Positions 2,941 through 58,970 of a stretch of DNA of 64,000 bases are shown piece after piece; positions within the stretch are counted from its first letter, which is position 1; each line of letters begins with the position of its first letter. The stretch covers positions 1 to 64,000 of the IMG/VR virus record IMGVR_UViG_3300012971_000002. The stretch is one strand, 5' to 3'. The translations under genes and the position numbers were made by a program. The notes below the pieces were generated by a model. That model was given only the letters and a program-made list of their open reading frames with translations. It did no database searches and was not told the DNA's origin. Source of the stretch: a virus.

Positions 2941-5532
2941 TTGGCAACCGCAGTTGCGAACTTCACCGAAGAAGAAACCAAAAAGCAAGGCGATGCCGAA
3001 ACACCGGATGAAGAAATTAAGCCCGGAGTTTTAGCTGGCGTAGATGTTTCTTTCGAACCGGATTATTGCGAAGACAGCGAAGACTATCCCCTGACATCTG
3101 AAGAAGTGGCCGCACTCAAAGAGATGTGCCGCAAAGCACAGACTCGCGACACACCGGCGCGGCTGATCGAGATCATTCAGGCGTGGGAAGCGGCGCTGTT
3201 CTACCGCGGCTATCAATTCCTCATTCCCTTGCGTGGCGGTGGCTGGAAGATCCCGAGTGAAGCGACGGGCTACGGTCCGTCTATGCAGATTGATCTCTCG
3301 CTTTTGCCCACGAACATCTACTCGTCTTACGGCCAGATGATTATCTCCGCGCTTACCCGCTCCGTGCCGAACGTCCGCTTCCAAGCGAATCAGGATTCAA
3401 GCGATGCGGCCATCACGAGCGCACAATCCGCGGACAAGTTCGTGAAGGTGATCCGGCGCAACAATGATTTGATCGTGGTCCAGACCGATGCAGCGCGTTA
3501 TCTCTGGTGTGACGGCCGCGCTCTCTATTGGTCCAGATGGGAAGTGGATGGCCAGCGCTTCGGATGGCAGGAGAAGGATCAGCCCAGCAATATCGTGCCG
3601 GAGAACGAACCGCCAACGGAAGTGGAAGAAAGTATCGTCGCGGGCGAAGAAAAGAAGGAAGTCCAAGAACAAAGCACGCCGATTGTTTCCGAAGACGAGG
3701 AAGCGCAAGACAACGTTACCGGCGAAGAAGCGGAAGAGGAACTGGAAGAAGCCACCAAGGGCCGCACGCCGAACGGGCAAGAAGTCCGCACCGCACACGG
3801 CAAACTCGAATGCAAGATGGTGCCGATGGCCGCGGCGAATCTCGCCGCTTGTGATGCGTTGCAGTTCGAACTCGAAGTGGACGAATGCCGCGCCAAGGGC
3901 ATGTTTCCGAAGAAAGCGGATGAGATCCATGGCGGGCAACAGGGCCAGAGCGAAGCCACGATTGCGCGGCTGGCTCGAGAGAACGTCAAGCTTGGAATGC
4001 AATCCACCTACGTCACCGCGGACTCTTCTTCACGCGATGTGACGATCCAGCGGACGTGGTGCCGTCCCTCTGCCTTCATGTGGGTGGACAACGAAGCCAC
4101 GCGCAATTCGCTCATCAAGAAGTTCCCCGATGGCGTCTACATCTGTTACGCCGGGGAAACCTTCATCTGGGCGCGGAACGAAAACATTGACGATTCATGG
4201 GCTGAGATCCAAGCCTACTCCGGCGACGGCCAGAACCGGAACGCGCTGGGCACTTCGATGATGCCCGCACAGAAGCGCATCAACAATTGGCTGGATCTCA
4301 TCAACGATTACTTTGTCCGCGGGATCCCCAAGATCTACATGGACAACAAAGCGTTCGATGTTCAGGCGCTCCGGCAACAGTCCAACGTTCCCGGTGACCG
4401 CGTGCCGATGAAACGCCAAGGGATCCCGGTGGAACAGCTTGTGTGGGCCGAACCGAAGGTGGAAGCACCGGCTTCGCTGTTCGAGTTCGTGAAGGAATAC
4501 ATCGGACCGCTTTGCGAATTGCTCACCGGTGGCTATCCGGCTATCTCTGGCGGCCAATCCGATACGGATACCTTCCGCGGCATGGCGCTGCAGCGGGATC
4601 AAGCATTAGGCCGGTTGGGACCAACGTGGCACAACATCCAGAACGCCGAAGCCAGAGCCACCAAGAACGAAGTGCGCTGGGGATCCAAGATGCGGAAAGG
4701 CACGATCAACGAACGGATTCCCGGTGGCGAAGTCATTCGTCTCGAAGTGAACGATCTGAAGTCCAACATTGCTTGCTATGCCGAATCGGATGAGAACTTC
4801 CCCGAGAGCTACCCGCAAAAGCAACAGCGGCTTGTGGGCTTCATGCAAGACTCTGCGAAGAATCCGATGCTGGGTGAAGTGCTCTACAATCCGGCGAATC
4901 TCGTGTTCCTGAAGTCCATGGTGGCGTTGCCGGAACTCTACATCCCGCAAGTGCTCGCATGGGAAAAGCAACTGGGCGAACTCGAGCTACTGACGAAACA
5001 GAAGCCGATCCCGAATCCGCAGATTGCCGAAGCGCAAGCCATGCTCGAGAAGTTAAAGAAGATGCCCAATGTGGATCAGACTCAACTCTTGGCGGTCCAA
5101 CAGGAAATTGACCAAATGGCCAAGACGAAGCCACTCGTTTCCTCTGTCACCGTAGATGGCCAAGTGGAAGACAACGAAACAGAAGCCATGTGTTGCTGGA
5201 AGTTTATGATGGAGCGCGAAGGCCGGAAACTAAAGCGCGTGAATCCGGAAGCCTTTGAGAACGTGCGCTTGCACTTCATGGATCACCAAGAAGCCGGACA
5301 ACAGAAAGCGGCCGCGGCTCCGGCACCTTCGAAACCGCCGTCCGAGTCCATTAATTACAAAGATGTGGCCGCAAATGATCCGGGCGCTGCAGCGCAATTG
5401 CTTGGCAAAGGTGGGATGACGCCCACCACACCAGCTTCGCCAGCGGAACCGCAATCATCGCCGGGAGTCCCATCGGCAATGCCAGCGCTTCCCGGTCCGG
5501 GGCAAGCAAGTCCCACGACACCGGCGAAATAA
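2941..5532 (+). CDS. portal-like protein (assigned by size and synteny)
   Basis: 863-aa ORF with TTG start immediately upstream of scaffold-like and capsid-like genes; acidic insert and Pro/Ala-rich C-terminus; no motif-level proof. Confidence 0.6.
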   Translation: MATAVANFTEEETKKQGDAETPDEEIKPGVLAGVDVSFEPDYCEDSEDYPLTSEEVAALKEMCRKAQTRDTPARLIEIIQAWEAALFYRGYQFLIPLRGGGWKIPSEATGYGPSMQIDLSLLPTNIYSSYGQMIISALTRSVPNVRFQANQDSSDAAITSAQSADKFVKVIRRNNDLIVVQTDAARYLWCDGRALYWSRWEVDGQRFGWQEKDQPSNIVPENEPPTEVEESIVAGEEKKEVQEQSTPIVSEDEEAQDNVTGEEAEEELEEATKGRTPNGQEVRTAHGKLECKMVPMAAANLAACDALQFELEVDECRAKGMFPKKADEIHGGQQGQSEATIARLARENVKLGMQSTYVTADSSSRDVTIQRTWCRPSAFMWVDNEATRNSLIKKFPDGVYICYAGETFIWARNENIDDSWAEIQAYSGDGQNRNALGTSMMPAQKRINNWLDLINDYFVRGIPKIYMDNKAFDVQALRQQSNVPGDRVPMKRQGIPVEQLVWAEPKVEAPASLFEFVKEYIGPLCELLTGGYPAISGGQSDTDTFRGMALQRDQALGRLGPTWHNIQNAEARATKNEVRWGSKMRKGTINERIPGGEVIRLEVNDLKSNIACYAESDENFPESYPQKQQRLVGFMQDSAKNPMLGEVLYNPANLVFLKSMVALPELYIPQVLAWEKQLGELELLTKQKPIPNPQIAEAQAMLEKLKKMPNVDQTQLLAVQQEIDQMAKTKPLVSSVTVDGQVEDNETEAMCCWKFMMEREGRKLKRVNPEAFENVRLHFMDHQEAGQQKAAAAPAPSKPPSESINYKDVAANDPGAAAQLLGKGGMTPTTPASPAEPQSSPGVPSAMPALPGPGQASPTTPAK

Positions 5533-26294: not shown

Positions 26295-26336
26295 AGATTA
26301 CGCCTTAACCGGTACGTTGTCAACCTATTTGTTTAA
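26295..26336 (-). promoter_or_regulatory. promoter cassette P4: TTAAACA-N6-TTGACA-N17-TAATCT-N5-ATG
   Basis: Read on minus strand; TAA stop of upstream gene is embedded in TTAAACA; one of four aligned copies. Confidence 0.6.
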
Positions 26337-27801: not shown

Positions 27802-27842
27802 AGTTTACATGAAACCAGAACGTTGTCAACCCCTATGTTTAA
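27802..27842 (-). promoter_or_regulatory. promoter cassette P3: TTAAACA-N6-TTGACA-N16-TAAACT-N5-ATG
   Basis: Minus strand; TAA stop of upstream gene embedded in TTAAACA. Confidence 0.6.
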
Positions 27843-28747: not shown

Positions 28748-30610
28748 ATGAAGATCGGAATTGTGACGAATATCAGCGCGGGGATCGGCTTGGCCACCGA
28801 ATATGGGCTTCTTCGCGATTACCTTGAAAAGCTTGGCCACCAAGTAACCGGCTTCCAGTTCGATGAAGAAGCGCCGGAGAAGCTGGAACCGATAGATCTA
28901 ATGATCTCGCTGGAAACCGTGTGCCGTCATCTGGTGGACATCGCGCCGGTCAATTGGCTGATCCCGAATCCGGAATGGACCAAGCCGCACGATCTGGATC
29001 TGATCGGCAGAGCCTACAATAAGATCCTGTGCAAGACGCGGGAAGGCGAGCGGATCTTCAAGTGTTACTTTCCGGACCGGACGCATTATGTAGGCTTTCT
29101 GGCGCGTGACGTCTTCAATCCACAGATCATCCGGAAACAGCGCTTCCTTCACATTGGCGGCAATTCCTCTTTCCGCGGTACTCAAGAAGTGCTCGATGCG
29201 TGGAAGTGGCGCAAGGATGGCTTCCCGATTGGCGCAGAACTCCTGATCGTCAGCAAGGCATTGCGGGAGCGGCCGGAGATCCCGAACGTGAAGTACTTCG
29301 ATTGGCTACCGGAGAACGAACTCCGTACGCTGCAGAATGAATGCCTGTTCCATATCTACCCGTCCGGAACCGAAGGTTTCGGCCACGCTATCCGTGAAGC
29401 GATGAGCACGAACGCCATGGTGCTGACCACGGCCGCACCGCCGATGGATGAGATCCATAGCGCCAGTAAAGTCCAAGCCCACGGTTGGTCCACCTATAAC
29501 CTTGCGAAAGTCTACGAAGTTTCCGCGCTGGATATTCATGTGGCGTGCAAGGAATTTCTTGCGAATAGTTCGCTGTTCGGTTATGGAATCTTCGGGGATT
29601 CACGCGAAGAGTTTTTGCGCGGCAATGAGTTCTTCCGGACCGCTTTCGCGGAACATCTCGAAGACTTCGTGCCGCGCTCCATGCGGATGGCTATCGCTTC
29701 CCGGCAAGGAAAGATGCGGATCTCATTCTTGGGGAATTTCCTTGCGGCCGAAAGCACGGAGAACATGATCCGTTGGGCGCTCGAGCAAGCGCTCGATCAC
29801 AGCGTGGATCTCCTGCAGGAGAACGAAGCCACACTCCGGAAGATAGATCTATCGTGTCGGAACTCGGATCTCTTTCTCTGGGTACGAACTCCCGGCTGGC
29901 TCAAAGTAGAAGACCGGGAAATGTTGGCGTGGCTTGCGGATCGTGGCTACCGGACCGCGAGCATCCATCTGGACAAGTTCTGGGGAATCCCTGAACGGGA
30001 AGCGCTGATCGGCAAGATCCCATTCTGGAAGACGAACTTTGTCTTTACCGCGGACGGTTCACGCGACGAAGACTTCGAAAAAGCCGGTGTCAATCATCAT
30101 TGGATGCAACCGGCTGTCAGCGAAGTCTACGTCCATCCCGGCACACCGCGAGATCACTACCGGTGCGATGTGGGATTCGTAGGCGCAAAGGATTACCACA
30201 GCGAGTATCCCTTCCGGCGTCAGATGGTGGAATTTCTCGAACGGACGTATGGCAACCGCTTCAAGCACATCACCGGGATCCGCGGCCACGAACTGAACGA
30301 TGTCTATGCGAGCATGAAGATCGTGGTGGGTGATTGCATTTTTGCCGGAACGCCGCGGTATTGGTCAGACCGCGTGCCGGAAACAATCGGCCGTCACGGC
30401 TTTCTTCTTCACCCGGAAGTACAGGGCTTGGATCTCCCGGTAGCCACTTACCAGCCGCAAGATCTCAAGTCACTCAAGGAACAGATTGATCTGTGGCTGT
30501 TCAATGAGGGACCGCGGAAAGAAGTGATAAAACAAGGTGTGGAACAGATCCGGCGCGATGATACTTGGACCGTGCGAATGCGCCAGATCTTGGAGATTGT
30601 CACGGCATGA
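28748..30610 (+). CDS. two-domain glycosyltransferase (GT4-like plus CgeB-like C-terminal domain)
   Basis: 620 aa; FHIYPSGTEGFGHAIREAMSTNAMVLTT matches the GT1/GT4 E-x-F-G...EAM motif; C-terminal half resembles Glyco_trans_1_2/CgeB-type; AAGGGAGAA SD. Confidence 0.75.
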   Translation: MKIGIVTNISAGIGLATEYGLLRDYLEKLGHQVTGFQFDEEAPEKLEPIDLMISLETVCRHLVDIAPVNWLIPNPEWTKPHDLDLIGRAYNKILCKTREGERIFKCYFPDRTHYVGFLARDVFNPQIIRKQRFLHIGGNSSFRGTQEVLDAWKWRKDGFPIGAELLIVSKALRERPEIPNVKYFDWLPENELRTLQNECLFHIYPSGTEGFGHAIREAMSTNAMVLTTAAPPMDEIHSASKVQAHGWSTYNLAKVYEVSALDIHVACKEFLANSSLFGYGIFGDSREEFLRGNEFFRTAFAEHLEDFVPRSMRMAIASRQGKMRISFLGNFLAAESTENMIRWALEQALDHSVDLLQENEATLRKIDLSCRNSDLFLWVRTPGWLKVEDREMLAWLADRGYRTASIHLDKFWGIPEREALIGKIPFWKTNFVFTADGSRDEDFEKAGVNHHWMQPAVSEVYVHPGTPRDHYRCDVGFVGAKDYHSEYPFRRQMVEFLERTYGNRFKHITGIRGHELNDVYASMKIVVGDCIFAGTPRYWSDRVPETIGRHGFLLHPEVQGLDLPVATYQPQDLKSLKEQIDLWLFNEGPRKEVIKQGVEQIRRDDTWTVRMRQILEIVTA

Positions 30611-40010: not shown

Positions 40011-40463
40011 TCAGACCGCAAAGGCAACGTGGTCAACCGGCGTGTACTTCTCCGCGTTGTGTGTCGCGCCTTCGAGCACGCTCCGGACTCCGGGCATGGC
40101 CACATTCATCGAGATGTGAAGGATCGAGAATCCGTTCGCATCATGCTCCAAGATCAATTGGTGAAACGGAAGCTTGGGATTCTCGCGGATCCAATCGAAG
40201 ACCGGCCGTGATTGCTGGTGGGGAACATAGCCATCCACGGCGCAATGTTCCGCGGTGTAAAGGTGTTCGCTGTTCGGCTGGCCGTGCGCTTCCGTGTTGG
40301 CTTCTTCGGTGCGGCGAGCGGAAGTGATCTTGAAGGCTCCGAACTGTTCGCGGATCGGCTCGAGCACGCTTAAACAAAAGCGCCTTACCACAGGGATACA
40401 TTCTTCCGGAAGCGGTCCATCCTGTTCGAACTCACTCTGATCGAAGTGCGGGCTGAGTAACAT
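40011..40463 (-). CDS. peptidase M15-like (D-Ala-D-Ala carboxypeptidase fold) endolysin candidate
   Basis: 150 aa from ATG 40463 (AGGGAGAA SD); FDQSEF...LEPIREQFG...ITSARRT...H...AVD pattern; longer track ORF would overlap the csp gene. Confidence 0.65.
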   Translation of the reverse strand: MLLSPHFDQSEFEQDGPLPEECIPVVRRFCLSVLEPIREQFGAFKITSARRTEEANTEAHGQPNSEHLYTAEHCAVDGYVPHQQSRPVFDWIRENPKLPFHQLILEHDANGFSILHISMNVAMPGVRSVLEGATHNAEKYTPVDHVAFAV

Positions 40464-40474
40464 TCGGTTCTCCC

Positions 40475-40504
40475 TTGACTGAAACCATGGCGAAGTTATA
40501 TATA
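40475..40504 (+). promoter_or_regulatory. sigma70-like promoter of the cold-shock gene
   Basis: TTGACT followed at 16-18 nt by a TATATATA run; about 35-nt leader with AAGGGAGAA SD. Confidence 0.55.
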
Positions 40505-40538
40505 CAGGATACCTGATAGGCAAGGGAGAACGTCCGCG

Positions 40539-40745
40539 GTGGGCAAAGAACAAGGTACAGTGAAGTGGTTTAACAGTTCCAAAGGGTACGGCTTCATTCA
40601 GCGCAAAGGCAACGCCGATATTTTCGTGCATTACTCCGGTATCATCACCGAAGGCTATAAGACGTTGAATGAAGGGGATCACGTTCTCTTCGAAGTGAAA
40701 GACACGCCAAAGGGTTTGCAAGCAATCAACGTAGAACCGGCTTAA
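40539..40745 (+). CDS. csp: cold-shock protein (CspA family)
   Basis: 68 aa, GTG start; GTVKWFNSSKGYGFI (RNP1) and DIFVHYS (RNP2). Confidence 0.9.
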   Translation: MGKEQGTVKWFNSSKGYGFIQRKGNADIFVHYSGIITEGYKTLNEGDHVLFEVKDTPKGLQAINVEPA

Positions 40746-40759
40746 CTTAGGAGACTTCC

Positions 40760-41137
40760 ATGCCGCATCGCATCTTCGCTGTGCTGACAATCCTCTGTCT
40801 TCTTTCTGGCGGTTGTCTGAAGGCTCCGATCCATCCCGGCGCGGTGGACAAGATTGATTCGCTCGCCTACGATGCGAATCTTCTTTACGATTCCGCTATC
40901 AAAGATGCGAAGGCAGATCTCGCGGCCGGTACGCTTCCTCAGACAGTGATCCCGTTTCTGAATAAAATGATTGCCGCTTACGATGTACTGAACGCCGCGA
41001 CGAAGGCTTACCACGCGGCTGGTGTTCCCGGTGGCACACCGGACATGCTCGCAAAACTGAATGAAGCGGAAGCTGCAGCGGCCGCGGCCTTTGCTGAATT
41101 TGTGAAGGTTTATCCGAAAGCAGGTACAAAGAAATGA
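40760..41137 (+). CDS. lipoprotein
   Basis: 125 aa; signal peptide with lipobox LLSGGC; Ala-rich helical body. Confidence 0.65.
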   Translation: MPHRIFAVLTILCLLSGGCLKAPIHPGAVDKIDSLAYDANLLYDSAIKDAKADLAAGTLPQTVIPFLNKMIAAYDVLNAATKAYHAAGVPGGTPDMLAKLNEAEAAAAAAFAEFVKVYPKAGTKK

Positions 41138-42599: not shown

Positions 42600-44330
42600 T
42601 CACAGTTCCAGAAACCAAGCGGCAATTTTGACGTGGCCTTGCCGCGGGTATGTCACAAGTCCTTTGGTCTTCAGAGCGCCAAGCGGATTCTTGAACGCGC
42701 TGCTAGTTTCGGAATAGCCCGAAGCCAGCGCCAGTTCTCTCCGTGCCAATTCCACACCACCGGTCAACGGTTCAAGGATCTTCCATTCTGGACCGCTGCA
42801 AATATGCTGGATCCGGCGCTCGATCTCTGTGCGGTCTACTGCGTTGACGTGTGGCGCTACCCGTTCGCCTTCATCCGTCAGATTGACATGGCCGGGATGC
42901 GGATAACCTACGAAGCCTTTGGTGTTGAGCGCTCCCAGCGGATTCTTGAATGCGCTACTCGTGGGCGAATAGGTAGACCATGCCGCAACCATGTCACGCG
43001 GCGGCGCTTCCTGTCCGATCTGCCGGAGTTCGGCCAGAGCCTTGAGAATCCGCGCTTCCGGTCCGGAGAGATCTCCGTTTACTTCCGTTGTGTGGACATG
43101 GCCAAAAGGCGTCTCTTTTACTTTGTGAGTGAAGGTACGCACCGATGATTCGATGGATTGCTTTATCACCTTTGGATCTATCTCGATCTTCGGGTAATCG
43201 GCCAGTGGTTCTTCCACATACTTCGTGGCCATCCGGATGATGGAAGTGAGCATATTCCGCGTTTCTACCAGTTGACGCCTGAAATGCTGGGCGCTAACGC
43301 GCCACGGCTCGATGTGCTGCGATAAAGCGGCTTGGATGGTGGAAGATGCCACGGTCAAACGTTCGGCCTTCTGGGGCACCGGCTGGGGCTTTCTGGCCAG
43401 TTCTAGGCGCAACCGGCTGATCTCGGCCTTCAATTTGACCGGATCGTTGGCTTCGGCTTCCTTCACAACGTGCTCGAGTTTGGTCTTCAGATCGGCCAGA
43501 TCCACACCGGCCCAGCCGTGCAACTTGGCGGTATCGGCCGGGGACTGTGGCCGGAAGGAATCGTAGGTCTTGAACATTGGGAAGTGGATCTGCTTTGGCC
43601 CAAAGTCAATCTCCGGGGACCAAGCCCACGCATCACCGCGCTTCATTTGAGCAAGCGAGTTCAGTACTTCCTTCCCCTTCTCGGAATCGCCACAGCCTTC
43701 GATCCAATCGCGCACAGCATCTCTGTCCCACTTAGTAGTGACGCGCATGGCGATAAGCGTTTCACATGAAGTCAAAAAATCATTGTGAACCTTCGAAGCG
43801 CGTTGACTGGCACCGATCAGCGTGATCCCGATCCCGCGGGCTTCCGCGGCCAGCTTATTGGACCAATGGAGCATCATCCCGGCTTTGTTATCCAGAACCT
43901 TACCCTTCGGCGCGAAGTTGTGGACTTCATCGATCACGAGATAGATCTTTCCCTGAAGCACGCGGAACAAGTTCGAAGCGAAGTCGATCCAAAAGGTAGT
44001 GCGCTCTCCCGGCATGAAGTCACGCATTTGAAGGATTGCGGATCGATTGCCGGTGCCTAGCAATTCGGCCATCACTTTGCCGGAGAGATGCGAAAGCGGA
44101 AGATCTTGGTGCTGGCCACCGAAGACCGGAACAGGGTAACCGGCTCGCTTGCCGTCTTTGTCCAGCTTCAGTCCCCACCAGTCCGCTTTCGGCGTGATTA
44201 CGATCACGCGCTTGTCGTGGTCCAAGAGATATTCCACAAGATCCCGCACGGCCGAAGACTTGCCCGCGCCGGTCTTGCCCAGTGTGATGATATGTTGCTC
44301 GAGCGCTTCAACTGGGATCGGTAGACTCAT
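42600..44330 (-). CDS. HerA/FtsK-superfamily P-loop ATPase with two tandem C-terminal winged-helix repeats
   Basis: 576 aa; Walker A LGKTGAGKSS, Walker B YLVIDEVHNF, GASQRAS; repeats SGPE-x-(R/K)IL...S-x-YS-x-TSSAFKNPLGAL-x-TKG-x-V-x-YP...GHV at aa 422-485 and 512-570. Confidence 0.7.
   Translation of the reverse strand: MSLPIPVEALEQHIITLGKTGAGKSSAVRDLVEYLLDHDKRVIVITPKADWWGLKLDKDGKRAGYPVPVFGGQHQDLPLSHLSGKVMAELLGTGNRSAILQMRDFMPGERTTFWIDFASNLFRVLQGKIYLVIDEVHNFAPKGKVLDNKAGMMLHWSNKLAAEARGIGITLIGASQRASKVHNDFLTSCETLIAMRVTTKWDRDAVRDWIEGCGDSEKGKEVLNSLAQMKRGDAWAWSPEIDFGPKQIHFPMFKTYDSFRPQSPADTAKLHGWAGVDLADLKTKLEHVVKEAEANDPVKLKAEISRLRLELARKPQPVPQKAERLTVASSTIQAALSQHIEPWRVSAQHFRRQLVETRNMLTSIIRMATKYVEEPLADYPKIEIDPKVIKQSIESSVRTFTHKVKETPFGHVHTTEVNGDLSGPEARILKALAELRQIGQEAPPRDMVAAWSTYSPTSSAFKNPLGALNTKGFVGYPHPGHVNLTDEGERVAPHVNAVDRTEIERRIQHICSGPEWKILEPLTGGVELARRELALASGYSETSSAFKNPLGALKTKGLVTYPRQGHVKIAAWFLEL
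42621..43067 (-). repeat. tandem duplication encoding the two winged-helix-like modules
   Basis: Protein-level repeat with 16 consecutive near-identical residues (TSSAFKNPLGAL.TKG); coordinates derived from aa positions. Confidence 0.65.
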
Positions 44331-54219: not shown

Positions 54220-54261
54220 AGAATACTCCTAAACTTGGCGCTTGTCAACACCTATGTTTAA
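54220..54261 (-). promoter_or_regulatory. promoter cassette P2: TTAAACA-N6-TTGACA-N17-TATTCT-N5-GTG
   Basis: Minus strand; TAA stop of upstream gene embedded in TTAAACA in the same register as P3 and P4. Confidence 0.6.
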
Positions 54262-55530: not shown

Positions 55531-55572
55531 ATTATGGGCTTAAAGCCGTCCGTTGTCAACATATATGTTTAA
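55531..55572 (-). promoter_or_regulatory. promoter cassette P1: TTAAACA-N6-TTGACA-N17-CATAAT
   Basis: Minus strand, in the divergent control region; the N6 plus flanks form the perfect palindrome AACATATATGTT. Confidence 0.6.
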
Positions 55573-55588: not shown

Positions 55589-55631
55589 GTCAACCGGCAG
55601 GTTGACAACTGGCATAGCAAAGGCGTACAGT
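55589..55631 (+). promoter_or_regulatory. candidate rightward promoter with overlapping inverted repeat
   Basis: TTGACA (55602-55607)-N18-TACAGT, ATG 7 nt later; GTCAACC-GGCA-GGTTGAC inverted repeat covers the -35. Confidence 0.5.
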
Positions 55632-55638
55632 CCGGACC

Positions 55639-55812
55639 ATGAAACCTATCACTCTGGAAGAAGCTGTAAAGAAGGCCGGTGGCGCTCGCAAGGTAGCGGA
55701 AGCCATCGGTGTATCCGTGCAAGCCGTTTACCGCGTCATCAAAGGGGACTTCCATCCCAGCGATGAACTACTGAAGTACGTCAAACTCAAGCGCGTCTAC
55801 GTTTGGCGATGA
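55639..55812 (+). CDS. Cro/YdaS-like HTH protein (57 aa, below track cutoff)
   Basis: Hand-translated MKPITLEEAVKKAGGARKVAEAIGVSVQAVYRVIKGDFHPSDELLKYVKLKRVYVWR; HTH AEAIGVSVQAVYRV; divergent from leftward operon. Confidence 0.6.
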   Translation: MKPITLEEAVKKAGGARKVAEAIGVSVQAVYRVIKGDFHPSDELLKYVKLKRVYVWR

Positions 55813-56128: not shown

Positions 56129-56291
56129 AAAAGTTCTTCGGTATATCCGCACACCACTTCCCAAGAAGTGGTCATTCGGCCATCCGCACGCGAGTAGCGT
56201 GGAACTGATCTTGGAATGCGGACATAGTAAGTTTCAAAAAGGTGCGGTGAAGATTCCGATCAAAGCACGGTGCCGGGATTGTCTTATTTAG
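56115..56291 (+). CDS. small hypothetical His/Cys protein (58 aa, below track cutoff)
   Basis: Hand-translated MSPLKKVLRYIRTPLPKKWSFGHPHASSVELILECGHSKFQKGAVKIPIKARCRDCLI; overlaps upstream stop by 14 nt. Confidence 0.4.
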   Translation: MSPLKKVLRYIRTPLPKKWSFGHPHASSVELILECGHSKFQKGAVKIPIKARCRDCLI

Positions 56292-56481
56292 GATTCTTCA
56301 AGCGCCAGTACGCCGCTTGCCTAGAGATCCCGAGTTTCTTGGCCAGCACGTTGGCTTCGCTGACGTGACCAGCCCACCGGCTCTTGGCACCGGCGCGGCC
56401 GTTGCGTTGGTTCTTTCGGCGAGCCAGTTCCCGGCATTGCTTGCATCGCGTTCTCTTGTGGCGTAGACACTTGCGAACCAT
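56284..56481 (-). CDS. small basic HTH protein in antisense orientation to its block
   Basis: 65 aa from internal ATG; C-terminal EANVLAKKLGISRQAAYWRLKN is HTH-like; TTGAAG-N18-TAGATT-N8-ATG upstream. Confidence 0.45.
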   Translation of the reverse strand: MVRKCLRHKRTRCKQCRELARRKNQRNGRAGAKSRWAGHVSEANVLAKKLGISRQAAYWRLKNPK

Positions 56482-56499
56482 GGAAAGGTAATCTAGCAA

Positions 56500-56919
56500 A
56501 TGGGACTCTATAACTTCAAGCAACGCTTCGCGCCATTCATTCTGGACGGCCGGAAACAACACACGATCCGGAAGGATCGGCTCGATGGCCATGTGGACAC
56601 TCCGGGCTTAGATATTTGCCATTGCTTCGTGGGACTCCGCACGAAGAAGTCTATCCTTCTGGGCCGATGGCCATGTCACAAGGTGGACCGGATCATCGTC
56701 CTGAATATGGATCCCAATTCTCCGCTCGTTCCGCGCAACACCGTGATCCGCGTGAACGATGAGAAGCTGACGGAAGACGAATGCGAACGGCTTGCTCGAG
56801 CCGATGGCTTCAAAGACTTCACGGAGTTCGTTTCTTTCTGGCGGGCAGAGCACAAGTTTCCGTTCTCCGGCCACATCATTCACTGGAAGTTTGAGAAAGG
56901 AAAAAATGAGCGAAGCTGA
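56500..56919 (+). CDS. ASCH domain-like protein
   Basis: 139 aa; FKQRFAPFILDGRKQHTIRK N-terminus and size fit the ASCH/PUA-like pattern. Confidence 0.6.
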   Translation: MGLYNFKQRFAPFILDGRKQHTIRKDRLDGHVDTPGLDICHCFVGLRTKKSILLGRWPCHKVDRIIVLNMDPNSPLVPRNTVIRVNDEKLTEDECERLARADGFKDFTEFVSFWRAEHKFPFSGHIIHWKFEKGKNERS

Positions 56920-57373
56920 TCTGGATAAAAGCATCGAGGAATTACCAATCTCTGTCCGAACCTACAATTGCCTGAAAGCTGCAAACTTATTGACGATCCG
57001 AAGCGTTGTGCTGAAGACTCGGAAAGAACTCCGTGAATACAGAAACTTCGGGAGAAAAAGCGTATTGGAATTAGAAGAAGAACTGGCGCGGATCGGCTTG
57101 TGTCTCTCTAAAAAACCAATGCACCGTTTCCATGTCACTACAAACCGCGAAGTTGGGGAACCAATTCTTGAACTGAGAGACAGAGAACAAGAAGCTGGCC
57201 ACACACTTATTGCAGAGTTCTATCCATCGGAAGCGTGGAATGCTCACCACGAGATCTTGAAGTTGGCCGCATCTTTGAATGGCATGGTGATGCCAAATGT
57301 AAGCGTCGCGAACGGAATGCGCTTGGAAGAACTCGAGCGCCGTGTTCATAAATTGGAGAAAATGATTCGATGA
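56906..57373 (+). CDS. RNA polymerase alpha subunit C-terminal domain (alpha-CTD) homologue fused to an unknown helical domain
   Basis: 155 aa; IEELPISVRTYNCLKAANLLTIRSVVLKTRKELREYRNFGRKSVLELEEELARIGLCL aligns by eye with E. coli [57 protein letters not shown]. Confidence 0.8.
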   Translation: MSEADLDKSIEELPISVRTYNCLKAANLLTIRSVVLKTRKELREYRNFGRKSVLELEEELARIGLCLSKKPMHRFHVTTNREVGEPILELRDREQEAGHTLIAEFYPSEAWNAHHEILKLAASLNGMVMPNVSVANGMRLEELERRVHKLEKMIR

Positions 57374-58454: not shown

Positions 58455-58970
58455 GTGGCTAAAAAGAAGAAGCTTGCACCGCGAGCGCGGAAATTCGTCA
58501 AAGCTTTAGCTAAAGGCATGTCACAAAAGGATGCTGCTATCGCGGCCGGTTATCCCCCCAAAAATGCCCGCCAATCTGCCTACCAAGTCATGCAAGCTGT
58601 TCAATCCAAGATGCCGGATATTATGAACCGGTACGGTCTCACCGATGAAATTCTGATAGACAAGTATTTACTCCCTTTGATGAATGCCAAGGAAACGAAG
58701 TTTTTCCCGTTTCGCAAAGAAGAAACAAAGACCATCAAGATCGGCAAGAAAGAAAAATTGGTCACAGAAACGGTTCAAGTGATCGAGAAGCGTGAAGTCA
58801 CCGCATGGGGCGCACGCCGGGATGGACTGGATTTGGCCTTCCGCGTCAAGGGATCCTTCTCACCGAAGACGGAAGAAGAAGCGCGTGTCACTCAGCAATT
58901 CACTGGGCCAACCGTAATCGTGCTCGATCTCCCGCGGCCGAAGCGGCCGGTGCAAAGTGAAAGCGCGTAA
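58455..58970 (+). CDS. terS: terminase small subunit-like protein
   Basis: 171 aa, GTG start; RKFVKALAKGMSQKDAAIAAGYPPKNARQSAYQVMQ matches the Terminase_2-type N-terminal HTH; later RRDGLDLAFRVKGSF. Confidence 0.65.
   Translation: MAKKKKLAPRARKFVKALAKGMSQKDAAIAAGYPPKNARQSAYQVMQAVQSKMPDIMNRYGLTDEILIDKYLLPLMNAKETKFFPFRKEETKTIKIGKKEKLVTETVQVIEKREVTAWGARRDGLDLAFRVKGSFSPKTEEEARVTQQFTGPTVIVLDLPRPKRPVQSESA

Follow-up and report, generated by a model that had tools for sequence, protein, structure and literature searches.

What would a bacteriophage do with its own copy of the domain that serves, on bacterial RNA polymerase, as the main docking point for UP-element promoters and for many activators? 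The question is raised by a gene for a 155-residue protein in a 64,000-nucleotide stretch of viral DNA (positions 1 to 64,000 of IMG/VR record IMGVR_UViG_3300012971_000002; hereafter the window, meaning the whole stretch analysed). An original prediction had described its product as a free-standing homologue of the C-terminal domain of the RNA polymerase alpha subunit (αCTD). We find that the domain is genuine and that it comes without the remainder of the alpha subunit (RpoA). Rather than standing free, it is fused to a second domain, here called X, that is a stand-alone protein in 17 other clusters. The window belongs to a metagenomic contig of 67.1 kb from a soil phage, on which RecT, terS, endolysin and Cro-like genes serve as phage markers. 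Segment 50000-64000 of the window returned no megablast match among 50,697 phage records. Feature coordinates are collected in Table 1.

The αCTD is a helix-hairpin-helix (HhH) fold with two HhH motifs, and residues 3-69 of the 155-residue protein are a genuine RNA polymerase αCTD, as originally predicted. PF03118 (RNA_pol_A_CTD), the sole Pfam family matched, aligns through profile positions 8-66 of 67 with residues 3-61 (E 3.8e-18; 65.4 bits, against a gathering cut-off of 23.8 bits). Every significant match in a PDB sequence search is an RpoA αCTD, led by that of Bacillus subtilis (3ihq_B, E 7.9e-13). The AlphaFold2 model has block-mean predicted local distance difference test scores of 89-96 over residues 11-70, and Foldseek places only αCTDs on top, with 1z3e_B first (template-modelling score 0.95, root-mean-square deviation 0.9 Å, 67 columns). 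Profile and structure searches alike give αCTDs and no other HhH family, such as a DNA repair protein, which had been named as the outcome that would overturn the assignment.

BLASTP against E. coli RpoA (from NC_000913) yields an ungapped alignment of residues 8-68 with alpha 255-315 at 38% identity. The alignment pairs R265 with R18, N268 with N21, C269 with C22, K271 with K24, N294 with N47, G296 with G49, K298 with K51 and S299 with S52, so the original placement of the UP-element contacts in the segments VRTYNCLK and NFGRKS was correct. The '265 determinant' for UP-element DNA consists of R265, N268, C269, G296, K298 and S299; by this alignment the determinant is complete in the phage domain (R18, N21, C22, G49, K51, S52). 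The protein has no Pfam match to the alpha N-terminal domain (NTD; PF01193/PF01000), and it lacks the linker. The NCBIfam rpoA models, whose cut-offs are 228-523 bits, reach 48-61 bits here and align at their C-terminal ~65 positions only, and because they match only there and so far below their cut-offs, the alpha assembly domain is absent, as had been claimed. Without an NTD the protein cannot be a polymerase subunit; it is a member of the αCTD domain family and not an RpoA. PHROGs holds no αCTD family, and the lone match of the protein there is at chance level (PmgS, E 0.19).

The 85-residue region that follows the αCTD had been described as helical with a heptad-like end. The heptad holds, and its a/d positions are L140-L143-V147-L150-I154; the helical description does not, since three beta-strands (residues 75-80, 87-92 and 100-105) are predicted, with moderate confidence, ahead of the helices at 110-124 and 140-154. 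An exhaustive search of metagenome representatives returned one, P0128, that matches residues 70-151 only. A family of 18 clusters at 37-57% identity emerged from word-index searches, first with the C-terminal part and afterwards with six aligned members. The other 17 (P0158-P0174) are stand-alone proteins of 71-122 residues without a Pfam domain, from soil phage contigs; most of these contigs are short metagenome ones, and one is a syntenic phage contig of 67 kb (L006). Their genes lie near those for RusA, a DUF559-like endonuclease, methylases and terS, and X has no relatives in IMG/VR. The family has the invariant core N..G..I.ELRD...LIAE.YP....N..YE...LN and a conserved helix ERLxxLERRVxKLE; the window protein matches the X profile at E 1.8e-39 and has 14 invariant and 7 near-invariant columns in common with it. 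The coiled-coil tail is kept across the family, lengthening in divergent members before a basic tail. In three divergent stand-alone proteins (P0171, P0173 and P0174) the longer coiled coil runs into an arginine-rich tail (RRRR...), which may be an alternative route to nucleic-acid affinity. On these predictions, X is an independent, conserved small alpha/beta domain with a coiled-coil tail that probably oligomerises the protein.

An αCTD is fused to X in one of the 18 clusters, that of the window protein. All-frame translation and tblastn with the full protein found no hidden αCTD upstream of the stand-alone X genes on L005, L006/7/8, L009, L011 and L012, which amount to five independent contigs. 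The stand-alone proteins thus resemble residues 70-155, including the ELRD...LIAE.YP...LN core, and in L006 also their genomic position, but the N-terminal αCTD belongs to the window protein only. Since the αCTD has been joined to a pre-existing family, any mechanism must include X.

How the two came together can be read from L006. By tblastn the window contig is syntenic with it: the RecT proteins are 58% identical, and KTSC, DnaA_C-like and terS-like genes are common to both. L006 has a small minus-strand helix-turn-helix (HTH)-like gene and, some 25 bp further on, the stand-alone X gene; the window has the minus-strand HTH-like gene, then an ASCH-like gene, then an αCTD segment in frame with X. 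The additional DNA lies between the ribosome-binding/start region of X and the X coding sequence, and its right end abuts the ATG of M72, which leaves the fusion junction exactly at the X N-terminus. Judged by this alignment, the gene is an evolutionary chimera, in which an RpoA-type αCTD segment and an ASCH-like gene were inserted before a pre-existing X. Base composition gives no clear signal of recent transfer: the αCTD-coding segment, at 44.9% GC, stands at the 3rd percentile of 207-bp windows and below the window as a whole (53.8%), but is similar to the X segment (47.5%), and the co-inserted ASCH-like gene is at 53.3%.

The phrog_8581 match of the ASCH-like gene (E 9.7e-14) is to a PHROG without assigned function, and its score against PF04266 (17.9 bits, E 0.005) is under the cut-off of 21.2. 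Its last 14 nt are also the first 14 of the chimeric gene, an overlap suggestive of translational coupling. No ASCH-αCTD linkage was found elsewhere when the proteins neighbouring the chimera were compared by tblastn with 80 viral αCTD loci. Public gene calls for the same contig include a 102-residue minus-strand open reading frame (ORF; 56284-56592) and miss the overlapping ASCH-like ORF on the plus strand. Only residues 40-99 of the minus-strand ORF are conserved in L006, and its true start is probably M38 (56481), which removes the overlap.

We next consider where the αCTD came from and what has changed in it. A scan of GTDB species genomes gave 80 best matches among the matches listed, so the taxonomic picture is indicative. 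Nearly all are from Acidobacteriota (Vicinamibacterales, Terriglobia, Bryobacterales and Blastocatellia), at 49-58% identity over the best tblastn segments, and in all 80 the match lies within a full-length RpoA whose NTD is recognisable. Over the ungapped 61-residue core, identity to Acidobacteriota-type RpoA is 50-57%. Acidobacteriota is accordingly the probable host phylum by sequence similarity; no tRNA genes are present for host assignment. Among these same matches listed, identity to cellular RpoA has a median of 52.5% and a maximum of 57.4%, versus 41% and 47.5% to viral αCTDs. Being closer to cellular RpoA than to the viral copies, the window αCTD seems to be an independent capture from a host-type rpoA, as these identities suggest, and common descent with the other viral αCTDs does not emerge from them.

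Residues were compared with 54 distinct closest RpoA segments (again among the matches listed) and 81 distinct viral αCTD segments. The DNA-contact positions are unchanged relative to the 54. The partner-contact positions are not. In E. coli the 261 determinant (D259, E261) contacts sigma region 4, and the 287 determinant (residues 285-290) contacts CAP-type activators; neither is present in its E. coli form. The D259 position is kept, as E12, but E261 has become P14 at a position that is E or D in all 54 RpoAs and in 59 of the 81 viral αCTDs. The 285-290 segment, TEVELL in E. coli, reads TRKELR: E286 is replaced by R39 (E in 52 of 54), V287 by K, and L290 by R43 (L in 53 of 54). The net charge of the core is +4, outside the range of -1 to +3 spanned by all 54 RpoA segments. 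The window domain is thus like the RpoA αCTD in domain family, predicted fold and 265 determinant; it differs in being phage-encoded, in lacking NTD and linker, in these substitutions and added charge, and in the fusion of its C-terminus to the unrelated X.

Encoding a copy of the αCTD had been called a little-explored strategy, and our literature search indeed found no study of phage-encoded or stand-alone αCTD homologues. The strategy is nonetheless not rare. A pattern scan of IMG/VR found at least 280 stretches that encode αCTD relatives, of which we surveyed the ORFs at the best 80 loci (74 complete, 6 cut by a contig end). None of the 80 has an E. coli-like NTD by a test that is positive in 80 of 80 cellular RpoAs. 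In about 20 of the 80, a small protein has its αCTD at the N-terminus, followed by a tail of 60-120 residues that by eye is helical or coiled-coil; among the remainder, some have the αCTD at the C-terminus and a few are near-bare domains of 75-111 residues. Three larger contigs (L042, 258 kb; L051, 200 kb; L056, 98 kb) have ORFs of ~300-320 residues with the αCTD at an RpoA-like C-terminal position (match at locus 4001-4180); BLASTP shows no E. coli-like NTD in them, and these may be alpha-like proteins of huge phages that have diverged strongly. Across the viral αCTD segments the contact residues are largely kept (R265 in 74 of 81, N268 in 69, S299 in 69, G296 in 66 and K298 in 59), which argues that DNA binding is the selected property of the viral copies.

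A tblastn search of the 50,697-record phage collection with the 155-residue protein hit 22 records, among which that of Bacillus phage vB_BmeM-Goe8 (MN043729.1) is the sole clear phage gene; the rest are mostly unannotated short records or bacterial contigs with an apparent host rpoA. In Goe8, a cultured phage, the gene encodes a 211-residue protein with a C-terminal αCTD, annotated 'RNA polymerase subunit alpha' (Goe8_c00050/c02430). It occurs twice, once in each long terminal repeat (L004 1959-2591, L175 607-1239), among many small early-type genes with 70-90-bp spacers. The corresponding region of SPO1-like phages holds a host-takeover module, which the Goe8 layout resembles. Like the window protein, Goe8 and the other viral αCTD proteins have no NTD, mostly keep the DNA contacts and often carry a short extension of helical or coiled-coil appearance; they differ in that no flanking domain or other homology outside the αCTD is common to them and the window protein, and none carries X. 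Viral αCTD genes without an NTD are widespread, and the αCTD-X architecture is unique in the data searched.

The chimeric gene stands in a rightward arm, a placement that suggests early or middle expression. A sigma-70-like promoter found by a promoter scan before the Cro-like gene is the probable source of transcription for the ASCH-like and chimeric genes. A perfect inverted repeat, GTCAACC-ggca-GGTTGAC (55589-55606), overlaps the -35 element of this promoter and may be an operator. The ATG of the Cro-like gene (55639) is only 8 nt past the -10 element, and its transcript may be leaderless. Elsewhere in the window, a 575-residue protein (42600-44330, minus strand) matches a terminase-large-subunit PHROG as well as FtsK/SpoIIIE-like families, and the parent contig carries another terminase-like gene past the right-hand end of the window; the window also holds a 620-residue glycosyltransferase-like gene (28748-30610, plus strand) and an endolysin-like gene (40011-40790, minus strand).

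The four phage promoters with an upstream TTAAACA element that the original prediction had noticed do exist, and it had offered the αCTD as their possible reader. TTAAACA-N6-TTGACA occurs exactly four times in the window, always on the minus strand, within an extended 22-bp motif, TTAAACA-N5-GTTGACAACG, for which shuffled sequences give an expectation of 0. TTAAACA by itself is not enriched (9 matches versus 4.8 expected; 12 of 100 shuffles reach 9). The heptamer would sit at about -48 to -42, the location of a proximal UP subsite, and the cassette contains a partial AACA-N4-TGTT palindrome. At 27842 and 26336 the motif is followed by a -10-like GTAAACT or GTAATCT and, about 6 nt later, by an ATG, so these two transcripts look leaderless. 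Since the host αCTD has the same DNA-contact residues, the motif needs no phage reader. The portions of related contigs that were examined contain no copy of the composite motif, a result of partial coverage that speaks decisively neither for nor against TTAAACA reading.

Table 1. Features of the αCTD-X locus and of the candidate target promoters (window coordinates)
Feature	Position	Strand	Basis or remark
αCTD-X chimeric protein gene	56906-57373	+	ORF and translation; 155 residues; ATG 56906, stop 57371-57373
αCTD module, residues 1-69	56906-57112	+	PF03118, PDB matches, E. coli alignment, AlphaFold2 and Foldseek
Domain X, residues 70-155	57113-57373	+	Stand-alone homologues at 37-57% identity in 17 other clusters
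Predicted C-terminal coiled-coil helix of X, residues 139-155	57320-57370	+	Part of domain X
Ancestral X start codon, M72	57119-57121	+	ATG; DNA alignment with L006
Insertion of ~620 bp relative to L006	56500-57118	+	DNA alignment and tblastn synteny; ASCH-like gene and αCTD-coding segment
ASCH-like gene, 139 residues, co-inserted	56500-56919	+	phrog_8581; weak Pfam ASCH match
Small basic HTH-like gene, 65 residues from M38	56284-56481	-	73% amino-acid identity to L006 9781-9960; flanks the insertion on the left
ORF, 164 residues	57370-57864	+	No family match; start overlaps the αCTD-X stop (ATGA)
terS-like gene	58455-58970		Downstream of αCTD-X
Rightward early sigma-70-like promoter, TTGACA-18-TACAGT	55602-55631	+	Promoter scan; before the Cro-like gene
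Cro-like HTH gene	55639-55812	+	Family searches
Leftward early promoter with TTAAACA-N5-GTTGACAACG	55551-55572	-	Candidate αCTD docking site
Second leftward motif promoter	54240-54261	-	2 mismatches in the extension; candidate target
Third motif promoter	27821-27842	-	Looks leaderless; candidate target
Fourth motif promoter	26315-26336	-	Looks leaderless; candidate target

We tentatively favour, at somewhat less than an even chance, a reading in which the chimera is an oligomeric, polymerase-free αCTD that occupies A/T-rich promoter-upstream DNA, tethers X there, competes with the host αCTD and thereby modulates UP-dependent initiation. The protein would be expressed from the rightward early or middle operon. 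Its oligomer would bind short, A/T-rich, UP-element-like DNA directly upstream of -35 elements, at sites normally occupied by the tethered αCTDs of the host polymerase, and binding would both place X at promoter-upstream DNA and compete with the host αCTD. UP-dependent initiation would be altered, most likely dampened, at strong host promoters and/or at the four leftward TTAAACA promoters of the phage. Domain identity, fold, conserved DNA contacts, loss of the NTD, chimeric origin, the altered 261/287-equivalent residues and the genomic position are shown; that the protein binds DNA, forms oligomers and goes to promoters, which way the effect runs and what X contributes are inferred. Support for the proposal comes from the DNA contacts kept here and in other viral copies, the absence of an NTD, the rewritten partner positions, the extra positive charge, the coiled-coil tail, the early gene position, the place of the Goe8 gene in the terminal repeats and the short A/T-rich patch (TTAAACA...) that the four phage promoters carry at the would-be proximal UP subsite. 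Untethered αCTD is reported to bind DNA weakly (Blatter et al. 1994), and the coiled-coil tail would fit the resulting need for avidity, as would the similar-looking tails of many other viral αCTD proteins. More broadly, and as a generalisation that we regard as rather doubtful, viral αCTD proteins might form a widespread class of host-takeover factors acting by domain mimicry, with the chimera as one example that evolved independently; in this class oligomeric, polymerase-free αCTDs would occupy UP-type DNA by the -35 element and reprogram promoter use, here also delivering X.

Several observations weigh against this proposal, and some of them point to a different job for the same DNA-binding surface. 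X belongs to no Pfam or PHROG family and structure searches return nothing for it (no Foldseek match; best E 0.6 in the PDB and 0.29 in BFVD). Because the fusion is a singleton among the X clusters and its αCTD has no close viral relative (at most 47.5% identity), selection on the fusion is not measurable. Both partner-contact determinants, 261 and 287, were worked out in E. coli and may not hold for this host, and the sequence-exact heptamer with its partial palindrome looks more like an operator/promoter cassette than a shape-read UP element. In metagenome proteins, αCTDs outside RpoA occur in tandem arrays of up to 11 copies, in fusions to Sigma70_r4, SNF2 and ResIII and with RHS repeats (large examples being P0009, P0010, P0014, P0016, P0025, P0028 and P0054; we found no characterised example). 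Like the chimera, these cellular proteins use the αCTD as a portable module; they differ in being large, with several copies or enzymatic partners, and in lacking X. The αCTD has evidently been reused as a general DNA-binding module, and tethering need not mean control of transcription. A second reading, which we hold to be on the unlikely side, is that the αCTD would be a generic tether that localises X on DNA for a task other than transcription initiation, such as replication, recombination, packaging, nucleoid remodelling or anti-defence. The tandem arrays and the SNF2 and ResIII helicase fusions fit such a role, as do the RusA, endonuclease, methylase and terS genes that adjoin X, the VRR-NUC-like, methylase and DNA polymerase genes among which certain viral αCTD genes sit, and the basic C-terminal tails that give divergent X members another source of nucleic-acid affinity. 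It accounts less well for the retention of the specific 265 determinant, which reads narrow A/T minor grooves and evolved for promoter-upstream DNA, and the sigma region 4 fusions point to promoter contexts.

The remaining alternatives invoke protein contacts or no function at all. The soluble domain could be a protein decoy that soaks up factors docking on the alpha tail (activators, NusA-type or Spx-like proteins, or a defence or modifying enzyme). The αCTD is a hub for many regulators, the predicted fold is essentially identical to that of cellular αCTDs, and identity to RpoA of the probable host phylum reaches 58% among the matches listed. The original prediction had allowed for a decoy occupying either UP elements or activator surfaces; its activator and sigma-surface part is weakened by the E261→P, E286→R and L290→R changes at near-invariant RpoA positions, for the best-known docking patches, equivalent to 261 and 287, are just the places at which the phage copy differs from host residues that are otherwise invariant, while all the DNA contacts, needless for a pure protein decoy, are kept. 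We consider this unlikely. Slightly less likely still is an accessory 'third αCTD', in which X would bind the host polymerase and the αCTD would redirect it to the TTAAACA phage promoters. The fixed distance between TTAAACA and the -35 element in four promoters speaks for it, together with the lack of an exact match to the motif in 16 kb of the 67-kb contig L006, from a relative without the αCTD. Yet the DNA-contact residues of the host's own αCTD are identical, and all four promoters, including early-left, are leftward and would have to fire before or independently of a protein from the rightward operon. A non-functional fusion or an assembly artefact, finally, is very improbable. The fusion is a singleton, and the three assemblies that contain the identical 155-residue protein may come from the same or related samples; but they include a JGI metagenome and contigs of 47.9 kb and 67.1 kb, the frame is intact, both domains keep their family-invariant residues and the junction lies precisely at the X N-terminus.

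If the chimera competes for UP-type DNA as we propose, it would join phage proteins that act on the αCTD by other means. T4 Alt and ModA ADP-ribosylate R265 of the host αCTD, and gp67 of phage G1 blocks αCTD use at UP-dependent promoters. The outcome would likely be the same, namely altered use of UP/αCTD-dependent promoters. The means differ, in that those proteins modify or bind the host αCTD or sigma, whereas the genome of the phage described here holds its own version of the domain, without an enzymatic or sigma-binding module. Phages are known to modify or block the αCTD; for an encoded copy, a strategy found in hundreds of viral contigs and at least one cultured phage with NTD-less αCTD genes, we found no published study. 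The locus described here offers a clean and datable domain capture, with a host-type αCTD placed before an existing phage gene, its DNA contacts preserved and its partner contacts rewritten. Competition for UP-type DNA, if true, would define a new class of transcription hijackers, and would offer a means of studying how UP elements work in Acidobacteriota and other little-studied phyla. If the αCTD is only a tether, the fusion would still mark DNA as the workplace of the X family.

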